Assembly: GCA_965219535.1 (NCBI GenBank)
Contig: CBDCNV010000001.1
Coordinates: 240,001-272,000, forward strand
Reading direction: 5' to 3'
DNA from: Opitutales bacterium
Lineage (GTDB): Bacteria > Verrucomicrobiota > Verrucomicrobiia > Opitutales > PNEW01
DNA: 32,000 nucleotides
Positions 715 to 28,311 of the stretch are shown one piece after another. Under the pieces are notes generated by a model, which was not told where the DNA came from, ran no database searches, and worked only from the letters and a program-made list of their open reading frames with translations. The translations under genes were made by a program, and so were the position numbers. The stretch's first letter is position 1, and each line of letters starts with the position of its first letter.

Positions 715-800
715 TGGTGCCCAGGGAGGGACTCGAACCCTCACGTCCTCTCGGACAACGGATTTTAAGTCCGCAGCGTCTACCATTCCGCCACCCGGGC
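715..800 (-). tRNA. tRNA-Leu, anticodon UAA, class II (long variable arm), CCA encoded
   Basis: The reverse complement reads GCCCGGGTGGCGGAATGGTAGACGCTGCGGACTTAAAATCCGTTGTCCGAGAGGACGTGAGGGTTCGAGTCCCTCCCTGGGCACCA. The acceptor stem is GCCCGGG/CCTGGGC with one G-U pair. The anticodon stem is GCGGA/TCCGT with loop CTTAAAA (anticodon TAA). The variable arm is a 15-nt TGTCCGAGAGGACGT. The T arm is GAGGG-TTCGAGT-CCCTC, followed by a terminal ACCA. Confidence 0.9.
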
Positions 801-2826: not shown

Positions 2827-2934
2827 TTTGTTCAAAAGGTCAGCCGCCTACGTCGAGACTACGGCGTGCCAGGAAAGGTCAAAATGTAGGATGCGTATAT
2901 GCGGTAAAGAGAATTTGCGTGCGGCGTTCATTCA

Positions 2935-5242: not shown

Positions 5243-7921
5243 TCAATCACTATCCTTTTTATTTTTATCCTCGTTATTCAACCACTTCGGCAACCGCCGG
5301 GGTAAAAAAAGGAATGCGGGTAAGACGATCAAAGTGACAGCCATCGTAAGAAAAACGCCAATTGTGAGCAACTGACCCATACTTGAAGTACCGCGGTGGG
5401 AGAGGAAGGCCAAAGTTCCGAAACTGAAAATCGTCGTCAAGGCGCTGAAAAAGATACCCCGCGCGGTGCTTGTGGCCAAGAGGCGGGTCTTATCGAGTTG
5501 GGGATCGTGAAGCCTGTGGACTAAATGAACACCATTGTCTACGCCGAGGCCAAGCAAGAGGGGAATCGCGATAATATTGGCGAAGTTAAAGGGAATATTA
5601 AAAGCCACAGTAGCCGCACCGGTAATGATTCCCGCTACGATCAACGGCACTAAAACGAGGAAGGGATCAATCGCATTGCGAAAAATTAAGAAGAGAAGGA
5701 TTAAGACCAAGACAAACGCGCTCGCGAATGCCTGTTTGAATGAGGCAACAATTGCGCGGCCCGACTCATAGATAAAAACAGGTCCGGCGGTGGCATTTGG
5801 AATGACCGACCGGACTGCTGTGACAAAGCGCTCGAGTTCGAGATTATCACTAATATCCGTGGCCGGGAAAACCTGCATACGGTAACGTTCGTCACGGCTG
5901 ACCCAAAGGTCTTTGATCGAGGCGGGTATAGCGTTCAAGGAAAAGCTTTCAGTGGTTGACAGTGCGGTACGCAATTGTTGAACGGCAAATGGTAGGGTTG
6001 CAAGGAGACTAGATTCAGTATCGCTCATAATCGATTGAACAGTTTCGGGTTTAGATGAATCCAACCGCTGATTAAATTCAATGAGTGTCGCTTCCAGTTT
6101 GCGGAGTTGTTCGCTTCGCTCTTTCATGGAGCTGTTCCCGACAGTAATAAGAAAATCATTCAGCTTCTTTCTCTGTTCAATGGCCGTGGGTGGAATCACG
6201 AGAGAGGAATCGAGAATATGAAGACCGAGAATGAGATCGATCTCCCCAATCAGAATCAGTTTTTTCGCCTGATCATCGGGAAGGTAAGTTAGAATGGAAA
6301 CAACGCGATCAACTTCCGGGAGAACCTCCAGTTGCTCGCTGAGAGCTTTAGTCTCCTCTGCGCTCGAAGCGAGGGCGATAATCGTCGAAGGATGTTTTCC
6401 CGTGTCATTTATCATATCCATTAAGATTTGGACGGATTCAGTATGGGGATCACGAAGCTTAATCGGGTCGTAATCGAAATAAGCCTTGGGCAGTAGAAAT
6501 AGAGTACCCGCGATTATAAGAGCGGAGAATATACTAACGGGCCTGCTGTAACGAATGGGCAAACGCTGCAGGAAATTGGGGTCCGCCATTTCAGTATCCA
6601 CCGCGCTCATCATCTTCTGGGATTTAGGAAGGAGATGCAGCATGGCTGGTAATAGAGTCATGCTAATGATAAAACTGATGAACATACCGGTTCCTGAAAT
6701 AAGACCAAGTTCCGATACACCGAGATAGGCGGTGGGAACAAAAGCGTAAAATCCGATGGCCGTAGAAAGGGTACAAATGCCAAGCGCGGGTGCCATGTAC
6801 CTGATAGTATTGTGAAGTGCCTCCAGGCGATTTTCGCAATAAGTGGAGAAGACGTGATAACGGAGGCAAAAGTGGATACCGTAATCGACTCCCAGTCCGA
6901 TATAAAGGACGGCAAATGCGATTGAAATTAAATTGAGGTGACCGATGGCCCAGGTCGCGAAAGCTGCGGTGTAGAGGATTCCTGCGACAAGGGACACGAT
7001 GGTGGCGAAAACCATCGGAAGGGAACGGAATCCGATTAAGAGGGAAAGAAATACGAGAATTAAAGAAACGATACCAGCGATGGTTGAACCTTTCATTAGA
7101 CTTAAGATCTCTTCATGTCCGAGAGCTGGCGCGCCGGTAACTCTTATACGAATTCCCCGTGTACCGTCGCCGGCGAGAGCTGTCCCCCAGGTGTGTATAG
7201 CTTCGAGCGCGCGTTCGGCGGGTAAGAGCTTGTTGTAATCGAACCTGAGCTTGGCCATTATGAAACGTCTGCGATCTTTGATCTCAGAATCTTTGTCGCT
7301 TAAGATATCCTGCCAGGAAAGGTAATAGGGTTCGCCATCGAGAGTCTTGCGGAACGCCTTATCGATTCGCAAAAAGAACGAGTCGAGGTTTAGATTCTCA
7401 TCATCTTCCAATACCCGCACCGCAATATCCAGCAACTCGAATAACCCTCTGAGGCTCTGATCCTGAAATAGCGCGGCGAGAAAAGGTTGCGCCTTGGCGA
7501 GATTATCCGCGAGATCCTGGAGCTTTTCGTAATCGAGAAATAGAAGACCATTAAGCTCGATAAAGGGCCCGCCGGCAGGGAGGTAAGCGTCCTCGAAAAT
7601 ATCATGTTCACCTTTGAGGAGCTCTACCAGGTCGCGCGCGGCCTGATCCGCAAATTCCGGTGTATCCGCTTCAACGACAATAACTACATTACCGGCGTGA
7701 TTTGGAAATGCCTGCTCATAATCAGCGAAAGTTTTACGGAACGAAAGTTCCGGTGATATCATCTCCGCGGTGTCTGTGTTAATCCCGAGGTTGTTCCTTG
7801 CGTAGGTAAACGCGAACCACGCAGAGACAAATGCGAAAACGACAATTGCCCAGGCGCCGCGCGCGACGAGATTTGCCCAAAGCTGGTATATCTTGGAAAT
7901 TATTGATCGATTTTCGTTCAC
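5243..7921 (-). CDS. MMPL/RND-superfamily transporter, HpnN-like
   Basis: An 892-aa protein with a GTG start. It has two blocks of about 6 TM helices, each preceded by a large periplasmic domain. The N-terminal signature LGINTDTAEMISPELSFRKTFADYEQAFPN resembles the HpnN subfamily. The subfamily call is from memory, not from a search. Confidence 0.75.
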   Translation of the reverse strand: MNENRSIISKIYQLWANLVARGAWAIVVFAFVSAWFAFTYARNNLGINTDTAEMISPELSFRKTFADYEQAFPNHAGNVVIVVEADTPEFADQAARDLVELLKGEHDIFEDAYLPAGGPFIELNGLLFLDYEKLQDLADNLAKAQPFLAALFQDQSLRGLFELLDIAVRVLEDDENLNLDSFFLRIDKAFRKTLDGEPYYLSWQDILSDKDSEIKDRRRFIMAKLRFDYNKLLPAERALEAIHTWGTALAGDGTRGIRIRVTGAPALGHEEILSLMKGSTIAGIVSLILVFLSLLIGFRSLPMVFATIVSLVAGILYTAAFATWAIGHLNLISIAFAVLYIGLGVDYGIHFCLRYHVFSTYCENRLEALHNTIRYMAPALGICTLSTAIGFYAFVPTAYLGVSELGLISGTGMFISFIISMTLLPAMLHLLPKSQKMMSAVDTEMADPNFLQRLPIRYSRPVSIFSALIIAGTLFLLPKAYFDYDPIKLRDPHTESVQILMDMINDTGKHPSTIIALASSAEETKALSEQLEVLPEVDRVVSILTYLPDDQAKKLILIGEIDLILGLHILDSSLVIPPTAIEQRKKLNDFLITVGNSSMKERSEQLRKLEATLIEFNQRLDSSKPETVQSIMSDTESSLLATLPFAVQQLRTALSTTESFSLNAIPASIKDLWVSRDERYRMQVFPATDISDNLELERFVTAVRSVIPNATAGPVFIYESGRAIVASFKQAFASAFVLVLILLFLIFRNAIDPFLVLVPLIVAGIITGAATVAFNIPFNFANIIAIPLLLGLGVDNGVHLVHRLHDPQLDKTRLLATSTARGIFFSALTTIFSFGTLAFLSHRGTSSMGQLLTIGVFLTMAVTLIVLPAFLFLPRRLPKWLNNEDKNKKDSD

Positions 7922-7996
7922 TGGTTAGTCAGGGGTAATTTTTTTTAGAAACTTAGTCGAAAGTTACAACCTGCATCGTGCGATGAACGGTTGTTA

Positions 7997-8069
7997 GTCA
8001 AAAAGTCAAAAGGTCAAAAAGTCAAAATGGGGGAATGACGAGTGAACAGTGAACAGTGAATAGTGGATT
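7997..8069 (+). repeat. Modular word array: (GTCAAAAR)x4, GGGGG, spacer, (GTGAAYA)x3-4
   Basis: GTCAAAAA GTCAAAAG GTCAAAAA GTCAAAAT lies at 7997-8028 and GGGGG at 8029-8033. GTGAACA GTGAACA GTGAATA GTGGATT lies at 8042-8069. Confidence 0.85.
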
Positions 8070-8128
8070 TTCCGAGTGCATACATCTATTCAATATTTTG
8101 CAAAATACTGGACGATTAATTCATTCCT

Positions 8129-8197
8129 CCGCTTTCACGCATCTTCGCTTATTCGCATCTCCGCATTCACGCATCCTCGCATCTCCGCTTTCACGCG
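8129..8197 (+). repeat. TTCACGC/CGCATCTTCGC word array running into the stop codon of the aminotransferase gene
   Basis: The sequence is CCGCTTTCACGCATCTTCGCTTATTCGCATCTCCGCATTCACGCATCCTCGCATCTCCGCTTTCACGCG. The 19-mer CGCTTTCACGCATCTTCGC (8130-8148) is identical to 19271-19289. Confidence 0.85.
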
Positions 8198-9546
8198 TCA
8201 GTGTCACCTAAGCTGGGGCCGCCGCTGCGGTCGCCGACGTTAGCGAAGATTGATTTTAAAGCCGGGCCTTCCAATAATTCAACAACATTTCCATCCTCGA
8301 TCGCTTTATCAACCAATTGTAACACGCGTTCGTAAATAGGCATCGTGTCATCGATTATCTCCTGGGTGTGCGCCAAGTTCATAAAATGGTAACCAATGAA
8401 GAGCAGCCCGTGCCGGATACACTCCTGCTGAAAAAGACTTTTTATTTCACTGTAATCGTAGCCCCCCGCAGCTTTAAATGTGACTGTGGTTTTTGGCGGA
8501 TAACCTTCAAGGGAAATATAGGAAATACCCAATTTCTCGGTTAGTGCTTTGAAACGCTCTTGTAAATGTTTACCGCTTTCCCAGATTTTTCCGATCACAT
8601 CGTTGTCGCGCATATAATTGATACACGCTATGGATGCGGCCATCCCGGTCGTCTCACCGCTGAAGGTACAGGAATAAAAAACATTCTTATCATCAAAATC
8701 TTTCATCACCTCACGTTTTCCGACGAGTGCTGAGATCGGACTGCCATTTGCCATCGCCTTACCAAAGCAAGCGAGATCAGGTGTTACCCCGAAGTATTCC
8801 TGCGCGCCACCCATTGACCACCGAAATCCAGTAATAATTTCATCGAAGACAAGGACGGCGCCCGCTTTGTGGACCAACTCCTTTACTGTTTCCAAATAAC
8901 CCGGGTGAGGTTCTTCAACATAGACGGGCTCCATAATCACGCAGGCGACATTACCTTCATTTTCAGCGAGGAGCGTCCTCAGGCCATCGAGATCATTATA
9001 GGAAAAGGATTTGGTTAAATCGCGTACCGCCTGGGGTATCCCGGCATTGCGTTCGGTCGATCCAATGTACCAGTCCTGAAAGCCGTGATAGCCACCGCAG
9101 AGTACGACATCACGTCCGGTATGGGCTCGCGATAAGCGTACCGCAATGCTCGTGACATCGCTTCCGTTGCGCCCCATTCTCACCATCTCGGCACAGGGTA
9201 TCAACTCGCAGAGCAATTCACTGAGCTCGACTTCAAGCGGATGACAGAGACCAAACACGTGGCCGTCTTCCAATTGCTTTTTGACCGCGTCGTTAACCGC
9301 GGGATGACCGTATCCTAAGATATAAGGCCCCAGGCCTGAAGCGTAGTCAATATACCGGTTACCGTCGACATCGTAAACATAAGCACCTTCACCACGCTGA
9401 ATAAAGTTAGGGGTGACACCTTGAATCCAGTTTTGTGGTCCACGGCTCAGGGTATTGGTTGTTGACGGGACAACTTTTTTTGCCCTTTCAAAATATTGGC
9501 GCGAGCGTGTTAAAGTTCTCTCTTGTGAGGAAGTGCTAGTACTCAT
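8191..9546 (-). CDS. Class-III (PLP) aminotransferase, glutamate-1-semialdehyde aminomutase-like paralogue
   Basis: Contains GGYHGFQDWY, VLVFDEIITGFRWSMGGAQEYFGVTPDLACFGKAMANG (PLP lysine in FGK), and MEPV. Length is 451 aa. Confidence 0.8.
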   Translation of the reverse strand: MSTSTSSQERTLTRSRQYFERAKKVVPSTTNTLSRGPQNWIQGVTPNFIQRGEGAYVYDVDGNRYIDYASGLGPYILGYGHPAVNDAVKKQLEDGHVFGLCHPLEVELSELLCELIPCAEMVRMGRNGSDVTSIAVRLSRAHTGRDVVLCGGYHGFQDWYIGSTERNAGIPQAVRDLTKSFSYNDLDGLRTLLAENEGNVACVIMEPVYVEEPHPGYLETVKELVHKAGAVLVFDEIITGFRWSMGGAQEYFGVTPDLACFGKAMANGSPISALVGKREVMKDFDDKNVFYSCTFSGETTGMAASIACINYMRDNDVIGKIWESGKHLQERFKALTEKLGISYISLEGYPPKTTVTFKAAGGYDYSEIKSLFQQECIRHGLLFIGYHFMNLAHTQEIIDDTMPIYERVLQLVDKAIEDGNVVELLEGPALKSIFANVGDRSGGPSLGDTDA

Positions 9547-9625: not shown

Positions 9626-9883
9626 ATGAAACTTAATGTTAAAGCGTTTGGACTGGCCTCAGGTATTCTCTGGGGAGTAGGTGTGTTTTTACTGGCGTGG
9701 TGGCTGATCATCCTAGAAGGATCTTCTGGTGATCCCACTGCTCTCGGGCGTGTCTACAAGGGGTTTTCAATCAGCCCTCTCGGCAGCGTCATCGGTCTGG
9801 TCTGGGGATTTTTCGACGGGCTTATCGGCGGGCTCATATTCGCCTGGCTCTATAATAAGTTAGCGTCTGGATCTCAAGCGTGA
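9626..9883 (+). CDS. Small (85 aa) glycine-rich two-TM membrane protein, function unknown
   Basis: Has a strong SD (AAGGAGG, 6 nt before ATG). Two hydrophobic segments are visible: GLASGILWGVGVFLLAWWLIIL and GLVWGFFDGLIGGLIFAWLY. Confidence 0.55.
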   Translation: MKLNVKAFGLASGILWGVGVFLLAWWLIILEGSSGDPTALGRVYKGFSISPLGSVIGLVWGFFDGLIGGLIFAWLYNKLASGSQA

Positions 9884-9975
9884 ACGCGGGAAAGCGTGTA
9901 CGCGTAAATGCGGGAAAGAGTGAATGATATAACTGGAGGGACGCGCGAGAACGCGTGTAAGCGTTGATGCGGATA
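9878..9975 (+). repeat. GCGTGAA/GCGGGAAAG word array starting inside the last codons of the small ORF
   Basis: The sequence is GCGTGAACGCGGGAAAGCGTGTACGCGTAAATGCGGGAAAGAGTGAATG...TGGAGGGACGCGCGAGAACGCGTGTAAGCGTTGATGCGGATATG. It contains the 14-mer TGGAGGGACGCGCG (9934-9947), also found at 19208-19221. Confidence 0.8.
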
Positions 9976-9983
9976 TGATTGAA

Positions 9984-10048
9984 GTCAAAAGGTCAAAAGG
10001 TCAAAAAGGGGGGAGAGACCTGTTGTAGTGAACGGTGAACAGGGAAAA
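9984..10048 (+). repeat. Second copy of the modular array: (GTCAAAAG)x3, GGGGGG, spacer, (GTGAACR)x2 plus GGGAAAA
   Basis: GTCAAAAG lies at 9984-9991 and 9992-9999, GTCAAAAAG at 10000-10008, and a G-run at 10008-10013. GTGAACG GTGAACA GGGAAAA lies at 10028-10048. Confidence 0.85.
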
Positions 10049-10110
10049 TTCTCCGCTTTTCCTCTTACACGCTTCTACGCATAATCGCGGAAACGTGGTA
10101 ACGCGTTACC
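10049..10110 (+). repeat. Complementary-word array (CCGCTTTTCC, CTTACACGC, TTCTACGC) ending in a perfect 14-bp palindrome GGTAACGCGTTACC that overlaps the dapL stop codon
   Basis: CTTACACGC (10064-10072) is the reverse complement of GCGTGTAAG (9953-9961). The palindrome lies at 10097-10110, and the dapL stop is the complement of 10106-10108. Confidence 0.7.
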
Positions 10111-13892: not shown

Positions 13893-14000
13893 GGGATGCG
13901 TGGAATATTGGAAGAATGGATGTGTGGATGATTGGAAGCGGAGATGCGTGAATGTGGGGAAGCGTATAAGCGGATAAGCGGGGATGCGTGGAAGCGGGAT
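13893..14000 (+). repeat. GCGTGGAA/GGAAGCGG word array (left arm of a long imperfect inverted repeat)
   Basis: GGGATGCGTGGAA occurs at 13893-13905 and again at 13981-13993. Bases 13945-13973 are complementary to 14131-14159 at 25 of 29 positions. Confidence 0.8.
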
Positions 14001-14020
14001 ATCCGAATTTATTTTATATA

Positions 14021-14128
14021 AGGTGGAGCGGGCTGCCTGACCGCCATAGCTTCAAGCAACGGCTGGTTCTCAGCACGCTTCTTTAATTTCGACTTGATCT
14101 AACGCGCTAGGGACAGCGCGTTCCACCT
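14021..14128 (+). mobile_element. MITE-like / structured repeat element, copy 1 (108 bp, terminal inverted repeats AGGTGGAGCG...CGCGTTCCACCT)
   Basis: It shares AGGTGGAGCGGGCTGGTTCYCAGCACGCTTCTTTA and AACGCGSTAGGGACASCGCGTTCCACCT with the reverse complement of 16200-16278. It carries an extra 30 nt (14036-14065) bounded by a GGCTG direct repeat, and it is flanked by TA on both sides. Confidence 0.7.
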
Positions 14129-14130
14129 TA

Positions 14131-14159
14131 CCGCATATACGCTTCTCCGCATTCACGCG
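14131..14159 (+). repeat. Complementary-word arm CCGCATATACGCTTCTCCGCATTCACGCG overlapping the OsmC stop codon
   Basis: This is the right arm of the 25/29 inverted repeat with 13945-13973. CCGCATATACGC is the reverse complement of GCGTATATGCGG at 2893-2904. Confidence 0.8.
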
Positions 14160-14608
14160 ACCCGCGTATCCACCGTCACTTCGGTGGTTACGGAATTAGC
14201 GATAAAGCACTCGCGATGGGCTTTATCGTGCAGGGCATTCAGCTCCTCTTCCGAGGGTATTTTTTCTCCACTAAATTGGATGGTTGGCTTTAGCGTGACT
14301 TGAGTGACGGCCATTCTACCGGATTCATTTTTACCTAATATTCCGACAGCCTCGTCGACATAACTGTCGATCGTAAATCCCTGGTAGGAAGCTATGGCTA
14401 AAAATGTAAGCATATGACAGCTGGATAAGGAGGCTACATAGGCATCTTCGGGATTAACGCATTCGGCTTTACCTAAATAGCCAGGCGCGGCTGAGGCCTG
14501 AACTACGATTCCGTTTTCGAAATTCCAGGTGTGCTCCCGATTGTAATTTTTATATTGGAAGTCATCACTTTCGCGACTCCAGTTTACGCTTACTTTATGT
14601 TCGGACAT
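14153..14608 (-). CDS. OsmC/Ohr-family peroxiredoxin-like protein
   Basis: A 151-aa protein with two conserved-type cysteines (SLSSCHMLTFLAIA and AHRECFIANS), typical of the OsmC family. Confidence 0.75.
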   Translation of the reverse strand: MSEHKVSVNWSRESDDFQYKNYNREHTWNFENGIVVQASAAPGYLGKAECVNPEDAYVASLSSCHMLTFLAIASYQGFTIDSYVDEAVGILGKNESGRMAVTQVTLKPTIQFSGEKIPSEEELNALHDKAHRECFIANSVTTEVTVDTRVA

Positions 14609-14610
14609 GG

Positions 14611-16039
14611 TCAGCTAATTAATATGTTTTGTATATAATCATAAATACCACGGATGCCCCAAATAGTGAGAAATGACCCGCTGATCACATTGAGAATGAG
14701 CAATGTTTTTCCCATTTGCAGGGGTTTAGGCAAATATTTGCGATCGGTCCAGATCATCAGAAAACACCATAATCCGCAGGTTAAAACTCCACCGAAAATA
14801 GCCGCGGGGGTTACAATTTGAACAGGATTTCCACCCAGCCACATAATTGCCAATCCTCCCAGCCCACAATAGGCGACCACCCAAGGTCTGAGCTTAGCGA
14901 TTGGGACATTGCGTATGCGGGGGACGATCGGACGCAGGCATTCATAAGTTGTCCGAGTATAGAGTTCATAAGCGGCGAAGATGGTCCCAAAGAATGCCAT
15001 GAAGACACCAATTTGATAAAGATAGATTAATTTAGGATGAAGTAAGGTCAGGAACTCAGCCTGAACGGAGAGCAGTTGGAGGCCGTCAGGAACAATGTGT
15101 TGAGGGTGAAGGATGGCCGCCCCGAGGACCATAAAAGCAATCGTGAAGAGGACAACACAAGAAAAGGAAACGACGGCATCGGTGAGAGGCGCGATCAGCC
15201 ACCTTCGGCCCACTTTTACATTATCTTCATCGACGGCCAGACTCACCCCTTCAGGACCGACATCATTTTTGCGGTTAAGGAGTCCCCAGCCTTTTTCACG
15301 CAGCATTCCCAAGTAACCAAAGTAATCCTGCGTGCCGCCCCCTATCGCGCCTAAATAAGTGCCCAGTTCGATCCAGGCTGACCTTGAGCTGATCGCCGGA
15401 TAGGCTGGCGTGAACCCAGGCTTCGTAAGTCGGCTTGCTCGGAATTACCGCACCAAGAAACGCGGCCAGCCAGTCAGGTTTAATCGCAAAGACCGCAACT
15501 AAAATGCAGGCCAGTAGTATGGAGACGACAAATGTCTGTGTGATCTCCAGAGCTTTATAACTTTGAATAAAGGTCAACGTGACCGCGACAAAGACAATCA
15601 TGGTCCCCCACACCCTTGGATCTCCCCAAAGGGTACCACTATCCATATCGAATATCCATACCATCAGTGATCCGAGCATTTTAGGAAGTCCGGATAACCA
15701 AAGGGGGAAACAGAGAATGCTTATAATCGTCAGCGTCCAGACCGCCCACCCATGCGGCCCCGGTAAATACTTCCAGCGCTCAATGGGATGCTCACCGGTC
15801 AGGGTAATATAACGTGACGCGGTGTATACCTGGACAAATTTCATTAACCCGCCGCCAATAAAACACCATAGGAGAGTATAGCCAAAAAGAGCCCCGCCGC
15901 GCGAAGCAAATACAGTTTCACCACTACCAATAGTGACGGAGGCTATGATTGCACCCGGACCAAAAAATCGGAGCAAAGTGAGAAAGCTTAGTGATTTCAG
16001 TCCTTCAGTTAAAGGGGGGTAACGCAGAGGTTCATTCAT
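14611..16039 (-). pseudogene. Nramp-like (APC-fold) transporter interrupted by a frameshift (ORFs 15296-16039 and 14611-15312)
   Basis: The N-terminal ORF (FGPGAIIASVTIGSGETVFASRGGALFGY...) reads as a good membrane protein up to about PSKPTYEAWV. It then degrades into a basic, non-membrane tail (SLDRTGHLFRRDRGRHAGLLWLLGNAA). The other frame is open from 15444 and reads ...YPAISSRSAWIELGTYLGAIGGGTQDYFGYLGMLREKGWG, continuing into the C-terminal ORF, whose track start is only a TTG. The two frames differ by one base. Confidence 0.6.
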
Positions 16040-16199
16040 AGGTTATACAGGAGCTTGTGAGGATGATAAGAGGACAGCAAGGTTTAGGTCATGGGTATAA
16101 TCCTCGGTCGTCGATTGTCGATTGAATTTTATTTGCACCTGGTGTCGACTTGATCGACAAGGTCACTTGCTCTACCCTGTAACAATGAATAATGCAATA

Positions 16200-16278
16200 A
16201 GGTGGAACGCGGTGTCCCTACCGCGTTAATTGAAAGTAATTAATAAAGAAGCGTGCTGGGAACCAGCCCGCTCCACCT
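16200..16278 (-). mobile_element. MITE-like / structured repeat element, copy 2 (79 bp, inverted relative to copy 1)
   Basis: The reverse complement reads AGGTGGAGCGGGCTGGTTCCCAGCACGCTTCTTTATTAATTACTTTCAATTAACGCGGTAGGGACACCGCGTTCCACCT. It aligns with copy 1 over both ends, and the central roughly 16 nt is divergent. Confidence 0.7.
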
Positions 16279-16326
16279 AAATTATTAAAATTGATTTCTA
16301 AAGACTAATCAGTAATCTTAGCCCTA

Positions 16327-18214: not shown

Positions 18215-19087
18215 TTGAGAGCGATGCTCGAACGCACACAGTTTACCTGGATACCCACATTTTTCATGATAGTGATTGTTCTCTGTGGGTGTCGATCGAT
18301 GCCGGATAAGACATTATATGTAAGTGAGAAATTTGCGTCAGGTATAATGCCTGCATTTCATACTTATCGCATCGATGGCCGCACTATTCATTATGCTGAT
18401 ATCGGTGATGCCAGTTTGCCCTTGGTAGTCTTTGTTCACGGCTCACCCGGATCGTGGAAAACTTTTGCCGGCTTCATGGCCGATCCCTATCTCCAGGGTA
18501 AGGTTCGTATGATAGCTGTTGACCGACCCGGTTTTGGTCAATCGGAATCTGGCCGTGAAGTTAAATCGCTTAAACGTCAAGCTGCCTTGCTGAAACCGAT
18601 TCTCGATCGCAATCGCTCCGGATCAGGTGCGATCCTAGTCGGGCACTCATTCGGTGGGCCGGTTATCTCGCGCATGGCGATGGATTATAGTGATCAAATC
18701 GGCGCGCTGATTATGGTATCACCGACCATTGATCCTGAACTTGAGAACACATTCTGGTATCAGCATCTTGTTAAAGTACCACTTCTCCAAATATTGATAC
18801 CGAAAAACCTTACCACGGCTAATCAGGAAATTCTTCCACTAAAAGGGGAACTTGAAAAAATGGTTACCCATTGGAACGAGATCCATGTCCCGGTATACTT
18901 GATTCACGGTGAACGCGATCGTTTGGTCTCACCGGAGAATGCGGAATTTGCTGAACGGATGCTAGTCAATGCGGAACTTAAGGTTTATCGCATGCCCGAG
19001 CTCAATCATTACATACCTTGGACGCGTCCCGATTTAATTAAATTCGCGATCATCGATCAGTTGGAAGAGCGGGTTTCATTCAACTGA
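18215..19087 (+). CDS. Alpha/beta-fold hydrolase, probable lipoprotein
   Basis: Contains the GHSFGG nucleophile elbow, VFVHGSPGSW, and HGERDRLV. The N-terminal MLERTQFTWIPTFFMIVIVLCGC looks like a signal peptide with a lipobox (LCGC). The likely true start is the ATG at 18224. Confidence 0.75.
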   Translation: MRAMLERTQFTWIPTFFMIVIVLCGCRSMPDKTLYVSEKFASGIMPAFHTYRIDGRTIHYADIGDASLPLVVFVHGSPGSWKTFAGFMADPYLQGKVRMIAVDRPGFGQSESGREVKSLKRQAALLKPILDRNRSGSGAILVGHSFGGPVISRMAMDYSDQIGALIMVSPTIDPELENTFWYQHLVKVPLLQILIPKNLTTANQEILPLKGELEKMVTHWNEIHVPVYLIHGERDRLVSPENAEFAERMLVNAELKVYRMPELNHYIPWTRPDLIKFAIIDQLEERVSFN

Positions 19088-19096
19088 TGAAGTTAT

Positions 19097-19205
19097 GTGT
19101 ATAAGCGTTGATGCGAAGATGCGTGAAAGCGGGTATGGGTGGATGCGTTGATGCGAAAATGCGTATAAGCGGTTATGCGAAGAGGCGGATATGAGTGAAT
19201 GAGAA
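19097..19205 (+). repeat. GCG-word array (GATGCG, GCGAAGATGCGTGAAAGCG) with an internal imperfect 40-bp tandem duplication
   Basis: The units start at 19105 and 19145 and share 29 of 33 aligned bases. ATGCGAAGATGCGTGAAAGCG (19111-19131) has an exact reverse complement at 19271-19291. Confidence 0.85.
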
Positions 19206-19261
19206 TTTGGAGGGACGCGCGTGGCCCTACAGGTATACATTTGAAAAGCCTTCCCGCATTG

Positions 19262-19306
19262 TCTCATTCACGCTTTCACGCATCTTCGCATTCTCGCTTA
19301 TACGCA
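19262..19306 (+). repeat. Complementary-word array (TTCACGC, CGCATCTTCGC), the right arm of the inverted repeat
   Basis: The sequence is TCTCATTCACGCTTTCACGCATCTTCGCATTCTCGCTTATACGC. It ends 10 nt before the DeoR stop codon. Confidence 0.85.
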
Positions 19307-19315
19307 AAAACATTA

Positions 19316-20083
19316 TCAGGTTGTTATCTTAAGTTCGGTTCCCGCGGACCGCATGGCACGACTGAGCCGCGGTTCAGGTTTTTCGTTCGTGACAACGATA
19401 AAATCAGATTTAAATGAAGTAGTCAGTTCGAGGGCGCGTTTCCCGAATTTACTATTATCGATGGCAAATATGCTTTTATCGGCTGCCTTCAGTATCTTTT
19501 TTTGTGCAGAGACGATAAAACTGTTACTATTCCAAATGCCTTCCTCCGTGATGCCCGCACCGCCGAGGATCGCTAAATCAGCATGCATTTGCGAAAGAGA
19601 GTTCTCGCATGTCGGGCCGAGGAGAACGCCGAGACGGTGGTAAACAGTACCACCCGTGACAATGGTCTCCATCGAGCTAATTTCATTAAAAAGGACTGCA
19701 ATAGGAAGGGAATTAGTAATCACGATAATACGTTTGGAGACTAACAAGCGTGCAACGGTGTAAGTTGTCGTACCCCCATCAAGAATAACGGTCATACTTG
19801 GTTCGACAAGGTCAGCTATATATTGAGCGATAGCATGTTTTTCGTCGACGTACCGATCATCCTGGGTGATGAAGTCATAACCAATAGCGTTTACTTCGTT
19901 ATCGATTAAGCTAGCGCCGCCGTGGTGCCGCCGCACCACTTCCCTGGCTTCCAGTTCGTTGAGCGCACGCCTGACTGTTGACAGACTGATATCAAACTCT
20001 TTCGCCAGGGTATGCAGATCAGCATACTGATGCTCGCGAATATATTGTTCAATAAGATCGATCCGTTGTTTACTAATCATCAA
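19316..20083 (-). CDS. DeoR/GlpR-family transcriptional regulator
   Basis: Has an N-terminal HTH (LAKEFDISLSTVRRALNELE) plus a C-terminal DeoR sugar-binding domain (ILDGGTTT, ILGGAGI). Length is 255 aa. Confidence 0.85.
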   Translation of the reverse strand: MMISKQRIDLIEQYIREHQYADLHTLAKEFDISLSTVRRALNELEAREVVRRHHGGASLIDNEVNAIGYDFITQDDRYVDEKHAIAQYIADLVEPSMTVILDGGTTTYTVARLLVSKRIIVITNSLPIAVLFNEISSMETIVTGGTVYHRLGVLLGPTCENSLSQMHADLAILGGAGITEEGIWNSNSFIVSAQKKILKAADKSIFAIDNSKFGKRALELTTSFKSDFIVVTNEKPEPRLSRAMRSAGTELKITT

Positions 20084-28262: not shown

Positions 28263-28311
28263 TAGGAATTAGGAATTAGGAATTATAAATTAGGAATTGG
28301 GAATTAAAATT
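28263..28311. repeat. 7-bp tandem array TAGGAAT x3, TATAAAT, TAGGAAT, TGGGAAT, TAAAAT in the 71-bp gap between aroB and the hypothetical gene
   Basis: Read directly. The period is exactly 7 over about 49 bp. The same TAGGAA word forms the dyads at 16851 and 16889. Confidence 0.85.

Follow-up and report, generated by a model that had tools for sequence, protein, structure and literature searches.

A head-to-head pair of degenerate octamer arrays between convergent hydrolase and DeoR genes of an Opitutales bacterium

Introduction

What kind of element fills the gap between two convergent genes with complementary repeats? This question is raised by the spacer between an alpha/beta hydrolase gene and a DeoR-family regulator gene in a 32,000-nt stretch of DNA from an Opitutales bacterium (the window; positions 240,001 to 272,000 of contig CBDCNV010000001.1, assembly GCA_965219535.1). 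An earlier note, made from the letters alone, described the spacer as arrays of GCG-containing words with a perfect 21-nt inverted repeat. It proposed a bidirectional terminator substitute, a REP/BIME-like element or a protein-binding array, with local slippage junk as the fallback. Here we analysed the spacer together with a 49-kb region, which is the window joined with flanking pieces of the source metagenome contig (ENA ERZ25067264, 300 kb), and with related genomes. L-numbers denote contigs or genomes, and the syntenic loci compared were those of L141/L142, L145, L006 and L003-L005. The best named IF3 homologues belong to Opitutales and Puniceicoccales (64-68% identity).

Several known systems are relevant to this question. 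In the REP/BIME/REPIN families of enterobacteria and pseudomonads, REP units are imperfect palindromes some 20-40 nt long, and roles in mRNA 3'-end protection have been proposed for REP/BIME. Ribbon-helix-helix proteins bind arrays such as the met boxes of MetJ, the omega heptads of inc18 plasmids and the tetramer boxes of ParG, which have an 8-bp period.

Short-period intergenic arrays (STRR, LSSR and TAACTGA repeats) have been known for decades, with no consensus on their function or origin. Intergenic heptamer arrays are sporadically distributed, mix several word families and differ between strains by indels in 7-nt steps, and their function is unknown (PMC4679880). TAACTGA arrays occur in Beggiatoaceae, Cyanobacteria and Bacteroidetes (PMC4679880). 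The LSSR, or 'long simple sequence repeats', have units of 5-11 nt (Mrazek 2007, as cited in PMC4679880), and the hairpins of STRR were proposed to be transcript stabilisers (PMC2670836).

Results

Two facing arrays occupy the hydrolase–DeoR spacer

The spacer (19088-19315) is bounded by the hydrolase stop at 19087 and the DeoR stop at 19316 and measures 228 nt, as noted before. The features of the locus are as follows.

18299-19087, plus strand: alpha/beta hydrolase gene (Pfam Abhydrolase_1/6; 262 aa called in the identical contig L001)
19094-19205, plus strand: left array of 14 tandem octamers D-A-W-G-C-G-D-R, in the sense of the hydrolase gene (period 8)
19105-19184, plus strand: five-unit (40-nt) higher-order tandem duplication within the left array (32/40 identical; lag-40 match 0.72)
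19111-19131, plus strand: left copy of the perfect 21-nt inverted repeat, exact reverse complement of 19271-19291
19190-19221, plus strand: conserved array-module tail GTGAATGAGAATT-TGGAGGGACGCGCG (TGGAGGGACGCGCG exact at 9934, at 19208 and in L003/L004)
19206-19244, no strand assigned: GC-rich core of about 40 nt between the arms, TTTGGAGGGACGCGCGTGGCCCTACAGG... (from the sequence; right half orthologous and alignable in L141)
19245-19308, minus strand: right array of 8 inverted octamers of the same family as the left array, in the sense of the DeoR gene (period 8 and motif)
19271-19291, minus strand: right copy of the perfect 21-nt inverted repeat, exact reverse complement of 19111-19131
19316-20080, minus strand: DeoR-family regulator gene (Pfam HTH_DeoR and DeoRC; exact product present on the source contig)

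The array pair at 19094-19308 takes up almost the entire spacer as one head-to-head module pair. The left array begins 6 nt past the hydrolase stop, and 7 nt separate the DeoR stop from the right array. The outer termini of the two arrays are alike (TTATGTGTATAAGCG versus TTTTTGCGTATAAGCG). The left arm matched itself at a lag of 8 nt with a frequency of 0.606, compared with 0.287 ± 0.043 in shuffles, and the self-match at lags 16, 24, 32 and 40 was as high as at lag 8. A repeat search found nine in-register copies at 8-nt steps. The GCG words described earlier are thus real, but their organising principle, an 8-nt tandem repeat, had been overlooked.

The other sequence observations on the spacer were all reproduced. 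Purines make up 0.68 of the left half, 0.29 of the right half and 0.51 of the window as a whole, so the halves are biased in opposite directions. The 40-nt tandem duplication with units at 19105 and 19145 has 29/33 identical positions, or 32/40 over its full length, and the two copies of the 21-mer are exact reverse complements. The complementarity of the arms exceeds the 21-mer, since 19093-19147 and 19255-19309 are 80% complementary over 55 nt.

The contig was assembled from long reads at 5x, and an artefact was considered. The independent assembly L002, made from short reads, has the spacer at 99.99% identity, which shows that the arrays did not arise in assembly; the presence of arrays in Illumina assemblies of relatives also counters a sequencing artefact. 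Two open reading frames (ORFs) in the spacer (63 aa and 72 aa) have no Pfam match and are open merely because stop codons are scarce on the antisense strand. A CRISPR array was ruled out, as the octamers are contiguous without spacers, whereas CRISPR repeats of 24-48 nt alternate with unique spacers. A riboswitch or small-RNA gene was rejected on anatomy. No match was obtained by BLAST of the spacer against plasmids. With Rfam covariance models, a tRNA was the sole match in the window at gathering thresholds, and no match fell in any array spacer at E-values up to 1.

The octamer has an invariant skeleton

The unit was characterised from a pooled set of 70 units from ten arrays. Position 1 is A, G or T, position 2 is A in 93% of the units and position 3 is T or A. 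Positions 4, 5 and 6 are G (99%), C (83%) and G (99%). Position 7 is T, G or A and never C, and position 8 is G or A. C is thereby excluded outside the core of the unit. These pooled values are inflated, because the array detector needs at least three of A2, G4, C5 and G6. When in-register units were set by the period alone, A2, G4 and G6 were each present in 14/14 units of the left spacer array. Positions 1, 7 and 8 of that array were near-random among A, G and T, and this unevenness between positions was significant (P = 0.003). Four positions are free, and the units show 60-80% likeness to one another.

The sense strand of the arrays contains 40% G and 12% C. Over 560 nt it holds 31 stop codons, versus 2 on the antisense strand.

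The invariance of A2, G4 and G6 together with the exclusion of C suggests that the unit is recognised by some factor or needed by the copying process. Of its properties, the invariant skeleton alone is left unexplained by neutral slippage, which points to recognition, either by a binding protein or by a module-copying machinery.

Sister arrays lie at other gene ends

The spacer arrays are not alone. The motif-phase detector found 10 arrays in the 49 kb, versus 0.02 in shuffles. Besides the two described above, the window contains these.

2890-2921, plus strand: short sister array of 4 units downstream of RsfS (motif detector)
8128-8199, minus strand: sister array of 9 units overlapping the stop of a class-III aminotransferase gene, without an inverted partner (third copy of the 20-mer at 8129-8148)
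9875-9973, plus strand: sister arrays of 6 and 4 units after the stop of an 85-aa gene, with the tail motif (9934-9947) between them (motif detector)
10052-10091, minus strand: facing sister array after the stop of a class-I/II aminotransferase gene (motif detector)
13935-13998, plus strand: sister array of 8 units after the NadB stop (motif detector)
14122-14161, minus strand: facing sister array overlapping the OsmC stop (89% complementary to 13946-13973 over 28 nt)

All ten arrays follow a gene on its 3' side, at -19 to +63 nt from the stop codon, and are either intergenic or overlap just the final 9-19 nt of the coding sequence. All ten also read D-A-W-G-C-G-D-R in the sense of the gene that they follow. 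Arrays were present in 4/6 convergent spacers of at least 40 nt, 3/18 co-directional spacers and 0/9 divergent spacers (Fisher P = 0.011). Facing pairs occur in three convergent spacers, namely hydrolase–DeoR, NadB–OsmC and 85-aa gene–aminotransferase.

The inner end of the sense array bears a conserved tail, GWGAATGARA..TGGAGGGACG(C/T)GC, which is exact at 9934, at 19208 and in L004. Tails related to GTGAATGAGAATT-TGGAGGGACGCGCG follow other arrays too. Other spacers contain additional word families (GTCAAAAR, AGTGAWC, TGGAANNN, TAACACY, TTCGAC and TAGGAAT). The head-to-head layout is general, as it was also found for a different word family in a co-directional spacer (879-908 versus 995-1024, 87% complementarity).

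The facing arrays at 879-908 and 995-1024 (GTCCAAAGTCGAAG versus its complement, 30 nt) sit between a tRNA gene and the ExoD gene, and TAACACT heptamers come next, past these arrays, at 1031-1059. A perfect 20-nt palindrome, TTGCTAATTATAATTAGCAA, lies at 670-689, just downstream of the tRNA gene (718-800, minus strand).

A second composite module, (GTCAAAAR)n-GGGGGAGAGMCC-(AGTGAWC)n, was seen at 7996-8065 and 9984-10050 of the window and at 7750-7830 of L004. It also directly follows the 85-aa gene in L004 and L006, where the module junction supplies the final codons and the stop of that gene. The sites of the module include both orthologous and non-orthologous ones.

A dispersed structured element of about 90 nt, AAGGTGGAGCGGGCTG..CAGCACGCTTCTT..AACGCGCTAGGGACAGCGCGTTCCACCTT, was present at 14017-14132 (plus strand) and 16196-16292 (minus strand) of the window, at 5481-5572 of L006 and near 7865 (minus strand) of L145. 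It has three predicted helices with one compensatory pair and no Rfam match. Its copy in the NadB–OsmC spacer is flanked by the facing octamer arrays, and its second hairpin is similar to the TGGAGGGACGCGCG tail motif in both loop and stem.

Sequence blocks are shared among unlinked arrays

The exact recurrence of a 19-mer of the spacer at 8130-8148, reported in the earlier note, was confirmed and proved to be part of a wider pattern. In the window there are 7 matches to this 19-mer versus 0.01 expected, with near copies (2-3 mismatches) at 8162, 13938, 13978 and 19153. For independent draws from the unit weight matrix only, a shared exact word of at least 21 nt between a 14-unit and an 8-unit array has P of about 0.0015, which indicates that the arms of the spacer share recent ancestry. 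The unlinked array near the aminotransferase stop carries a 20-mer of the 21-mer block just as well (8129-8148).

We compared alignment scores between arrays. The hydrolase and DeoR partners scored 28, versus 30 for hydrolase and aminotransferase; the NadB and OsmC partners scored 20, versus 30 for NadB and aminotransferase. Partner arms are therefore no more alike than non-partners. Copying thus takes place among arrays generally, and there was no sign that pairing is maintained at individual loci.

Larger blocks are shared as well. The window and L004 both carry the block ACACGCTTCTACGCATAATCGCGG.AACGCG, at stops that are not orthologous, and a composite of a GCG array, a GTCAAAAR array, GGGGGAGAGMCC, an AGTGAWC array and an inverted GCG array recurs at non-orthologous sites. 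In a metagenome scan for the exact 19-mer, the 10 matches were all due to chance and lay in unrelated sequence. In conclusion, the arrays change via duplication of units and of multi-unit blocks, and blocks are common to the two arms and to unlinked loci. This block sharing is the source of the perfect 21-mer and of its copy near 8130.

The hairpin is stable in the window and unconserved

The spacer was folded on both strands. The minimum free energies were -100.3 and -81.7 kcal/mol (z = -7.7), so the predicted stem-loop is very stable; folded as DNA, the spacer gave z = -7.0. Among the other facing pairs of the window, the z-score was -5.8 for NadB–OsmC and -1.9 for 85-aa gene–aminotransferase. 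The orthologous hydrolase–DeoR spacers gave -3.6 (L006), -2.1 (L145) and -0.8 (L004). The lone array at 8128-8199 is unstructured as RNA (z = -0.7). No stem-plus-U-tract terminator was found in 19088-19315, as stated before, and the number of canonical terminators in the region (14) was close to the shuffle expectation (12.9).

The terminator or long stem-loop proposed earlier thus has a stable fold, but this fold is not conserved in close relatives that keep the flanking genes, where the arms are unalignable, unbalanced or missing; the proposal thereby fails a refutation test set in the earlier note itself. As the hairpin is unconserved, we do not regard it as the selected feature. The hydrolase–DeoR hairpin is probably not a dedicated terminator.

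Arrays persist in relatives and turn over rapidly

Arrays are kept in the hydrolase–DeoR spacer of all the relatives with a recovered syntenic locus, with L004 lacking the right arm. The spacer measures 228, 267, 301 or 119 nt across four genomes, and the unit number differs in each; the arms of L006 have 5 and about 12 units. Between the window and L141, third codon positions of DeoR are 89% identical, whereas identity in the orthologous right arm is 78% and mutations have hit most of its GCG cores. For L145 the values are 79% and 56%. Judged by these alignments, the arrays turn over faster than synonymous sites. New units in the diverged genomes retain the octamer motif.

The arrays abut coding ends and at times overwrite them. 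The 85-aa protein ends in ..GSQA* in the window versus ..GSEGS* in L004 and L006, and its stop codon is supplied by an array. The final codons of this gene have given way, in the window, to a block of about 105 nt that provides its TGA, and the array block at 9875-9973 supplies that stop. NadB is 9 aa longer in L004 (544 aa) than in the window (535 aa).

Arrays were present at IF3 identities of at least 82% (L004, L006, L141 and L145). No octamer array was found in the 8-20 kb each of L148, L149 and L150 (IF3 identity 65-74%). The family is confined to one clade. We also scanned a genome collection for four in-phase AWGCG units. Among the matches listed, which include coding sequence of high-GC genomes, octamer arrays with an AWGCG core occur in many phyla and are mostly near-perfect simple repeats.

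Several further events were observed in the relatives. The closest relative (IF3 identity 98%; L141 15024-15500 and L142 12621-13097) has lost the sigma-factor and hydrolase genes and the left array. The sigma start alone remains, and the right arm survives with most of its GCG cores mutated. Arrays elsewhere in the L141 genome are likewise decayed, from ATGCG to ATGTG. In a relative of 83% identity (L003/L004 4506-5570), an insertion sequence (IS) element with HTH_28 and rve transposase genes is inserted within the NadB–OsmC array spacer. A TAGGAAT-type heptamer array separates the DHQ synthase stop from the start of a 202-aa gene (window 28263-28311; L004 20136-20210; L006 20036-20103; L141 7177-7224); its position is conserved in all, and its sequence drifts.

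An unrelated phylum shows the architecture of the window as well. In a Candidatus Wallbacteria metagenome-assembled genome (MAG; L031 1830-5940), the DNA between genes holds mosaics of degenerate arrays with 7-nt and 8-nt units, often facing each other across short loops, as AAAGCGTA.. does with ..CCGCTTTG and CCCATTA.. with GGTAATC...

Where L004, L006 and L141 have one Nramp transporter gene of 475 aa, the window has that gene split into two overlapping ORFs of 231 and 247 aa (14611-16039). The split reflects either a frameshift pseudogene or a mistake in the long-read contig (5x).

Discussion

We favour, with modest confidence, the explanation that the spacer is a head-to-head pair of modules from a clade-specific, fast-evolving mosaic repeat family of uncultured Verrucomicrobiota related to Opitutia, and that the hairpin is a by-product. 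Each module consists of a degenerate 8-bp unit run whose start is at or on a stop codon, then the tail GWGAATGARA..TGGAGGGACGCGCG, then the GC-rich core. Modules may persist at the 3' side of genes because promoters and 5' untranslated regions are undisturbed there, and the stop-rich sense strand (31 versus 2) may make encroachment on coding ends harmless in the sense orientation. The long hairpin would then arise wherever two modules face each other rather than as a locus-specific device. Read-through RNA of either gene is predicted to fold into an imperfect stem of about 50 bp, and this stem would be expected to hinder 3' exonucleases and convergent read-through, as proposed for REP/BIME and for the cyanobacterial STRR hairpins. 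The hairpin thus probably has some effect on read-through RNA, by exonuclease protection or as a roadblock.

The best-supported description of the family is a verrucomicrobial counterpart of STRR/LSSR arrays with REP/BIME-like placement. Like STRR and LSSR, the arrays are short-period tandem repeats restricted to intergenic DNA (10/10 arrays mainly intergenic), with head-to-tail units in the 5-11-nt range beyond chance (period 8; 14 and 8 units; lag-8 match 0.606). They share with them several word families per spacer, the capability to form hairpins, a sporadic lineage-specific distribution and whole-unit differences between strains. Unlike the near-identical copies of STRR/LSSR, the units of the window are degenerate around an invariant A.G.G skeleton, and the arrays bear a conserved non-repeat tail. 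STRR proper are heptamers of heterocystous cyanobacteria, whereas the window arrays have period 8 in a host related to Opitutia (Verrucomicrobiota). The TAACTGA repeats of BOGUAY lie just upstream of start codons, whereas the window arrays touch stop codons, on the 3' side of genes. The literature searched, the coverage of which was partial, gave no account of D-A-W-G-C-G-D-R arrays with 8-nt units in Verrucomicrobiota; to that extent the family is undescribed, while its general kind is already known.

Of the three options in the earlier note, the REP/BIME-like repeat is the best supported, as a mode of action and not as membership. As in REP/BIME, the family is dispersed, extragenic and mosaic (10 arrays in 49 kb), lies at gene 3' ends and between convergent genes, contains inverted doublets, and its inverted pairs fold as hairpins in read-through RNA. 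Unlike REP, the unit is a non-palindromic octamer, and an array by itself has no structure (z = -0.7). Sequence similarity to REP is absent and no GTAG-type head was seen, so membership does not hold. No RAYT (IS200/IS605-like) transposase was found within the approximately 49 kb examined.

If the spacer were a dedicated bidirectional, factor-independent terminator or insulator, its arms would be kept complementary and the hairpin would stop RNA polymerase or protect the 3' end. The very stable fold on both strands and as DNA, the good fold of the NadB–OsmC spacer, the lack of an excess of canonical terminators and the enrichment of arrays in convergent spacers are all consistent with this idea. 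Intrinsic (Rho-independent) terminators likewise follow stop codons and have hairpin potential. They have a compact GC stem of 5-20 bp with a short loop and then a U-tract, whereas the stem here is about 50 bp long, imperfect and unconserved (z = -3.6, -2.1 and -0.8 in relatives, with the right arm missing from L004), and neither arm is followed by a U-tract. The weak fold of the third convergent pair, the equal likeness of partner and non-partner arms and the presence of unstructured, partnerless arrays at co-directional gene ends also make such a role unlikely. Strand-specific loading of Rho is another way in which the arrays might act on transcription. Their complement is C-rich and G-poor (40% C, 12% G in the antisense RNA, with one pyrimidine-C step per unit), and Rho could end antisense transcription that enters the gene 3' end, in keeping with the enrichment between convergent genes. 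The C-rich arm in a read-through transcript would however be sequestered by the preceding G-rich arm, the conserved central G is unnecessary for a Rho-loading site, and the polarity evidence apart from the head-to-head layout is weak (3/3), so we consider this reading very unlikely. Purely local slippage junk, unrelated to other loci, would fit the 40-nt tandem duplication and the rapid turnover. It was rejected as hardly credible, because the family is dispersed, with the octamer and the exact 20-mer at other loci, conservation is position-specific, and four relatives carry arrays in the orthologous spacer.

The arrays might instead form a periodic binding platform, on which an oligomeric protein is seated in an 8-nt register, on either the purine-rich 3' untranslated RNA or duplex DNA. 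TRAP and HutP are analogues for RNA; for duplex DNA the analogues are ribbon-helix-helix proteins, with their tandem met boxes (8 bp) or omega heptads (7 bp). The unit speaks for this idea, with A2, G4 and G6 in 14/14 copies, positions 1, 3, 7 and 8 variable (P = 0.003), a pattern that holds in 70 units, and C excluded outside the core. New units in diverged genomes keep the motif, and in the L141 lineage it decays throughout (GCG to GTG or GAA), as if a maintaining factor had been lost. Ribbon-helix-helix operator arrays also have a contiguous 7-8-bp register, a few invariant positions per unit, and direct as well as inverted arrangements. They lie at promoters or centromeres, though, with 2-20 units and a known binding protein, whereas the window arrays lie at gene 3' ends away from promoters and the analysis identified no candidate protein. 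The turnover of individual arrays outpaces that of synonymous sites, and the detector rule inflates the pooled conservation, although the in-register 14-unit array is unaffected. We regard the platform as distinctly unlikely. The spacer could also be one complete non-autonomous mobile element like a miniature inverted-repeat transposable element (MITE), whose inverted ends are arrays of a transposase-binding motif. The array-core-inverted array layout with similar termini (TTATGTGTATAAGCG versus TTTTTGCGTATAAGCG), the 80% complementary arms (19093-19147 and 19255-19309), which resemble terminal inverted repeats, the blocks common to unlinked loci and the shared composite order at non-orthologous sites of two genomes, including a divergent spacer, argue for it. 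Against it, no direct repeats flank the arms, neither a target-site duplication nor an empty site was found, and the copies at other loci share modules as mosaics and are not full-length relatives. Arm lengths vary widely (14 versus 8 units here, 5 versus about 12 in L006), and no associated transposase was seen, the sole nearby IS genes being IS3-like. This makes the mobile-element reading a long shot.

The favoured explanation, a mosaic repeat family with the hairpin as a by-product, also meets difficulties. Strong position-specific conservation of the unit is unexpected for selfish or neutral repeats without a recognising factor, and none was found. Neither a target-site duplication nor an empty site was seen. 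The census and the orientation statistics rest on about 49 kb and on the syntenic region of four relatives. As for polarity, any head-to-head pair in a convergent spacer obeys automatically the rule that arrays read in sense after a stop, support independent of this is limited to 3/3 single arrays in co-directional spacers (P = 0.125), and L004 has an array composite in a divergent spacer; for these reasons we do not claim polarity as established. A general polarity across phyla was tried and rejected. An ORF heuristic gave 29 versus 8, a biased result because sense-strand stops truncate spurious ORFs in high-GC DNA, and clear low-GC cases inspected manually gave about 6 versus 6.

Our results have practical consequences. 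A terminator annotation of the 21-bp inverted repeat is unwarranted at the hydrolase–DeoR locus. The arrays alter the C-termini of proteins, and in these MAGs they will mislead gene callers, terminator predictors and assemblers. The clade is an unusually dense example of such arrays and has a clear internal structure: the degenerate unit keeps an invariant skeleton, the tail is fixed, arrays are laid out head to head and touch stop codons, and in one close relative (L141) the motif is decaying. Taken as a whole, these features enable comparative tests, for example of which gene tracks the arrays. It is conceivable, although we give the idea little weight, that an oligomeric nucleic-acid-binding protein with a register of 8 nt uses the arrays throughout the genome as landing platforms, recognising the A.G(C)G skeleton and marking or insulating gene 3' ends in this clade. 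If so, the degenerate head-to-head 7-8-nt arrays of other phyla, such as those of L031, would be analogous systems, and STRR/LSSR-type repeats would gain a function. The interest of the family would rise sharply if a factor that recognises the octamer were found.

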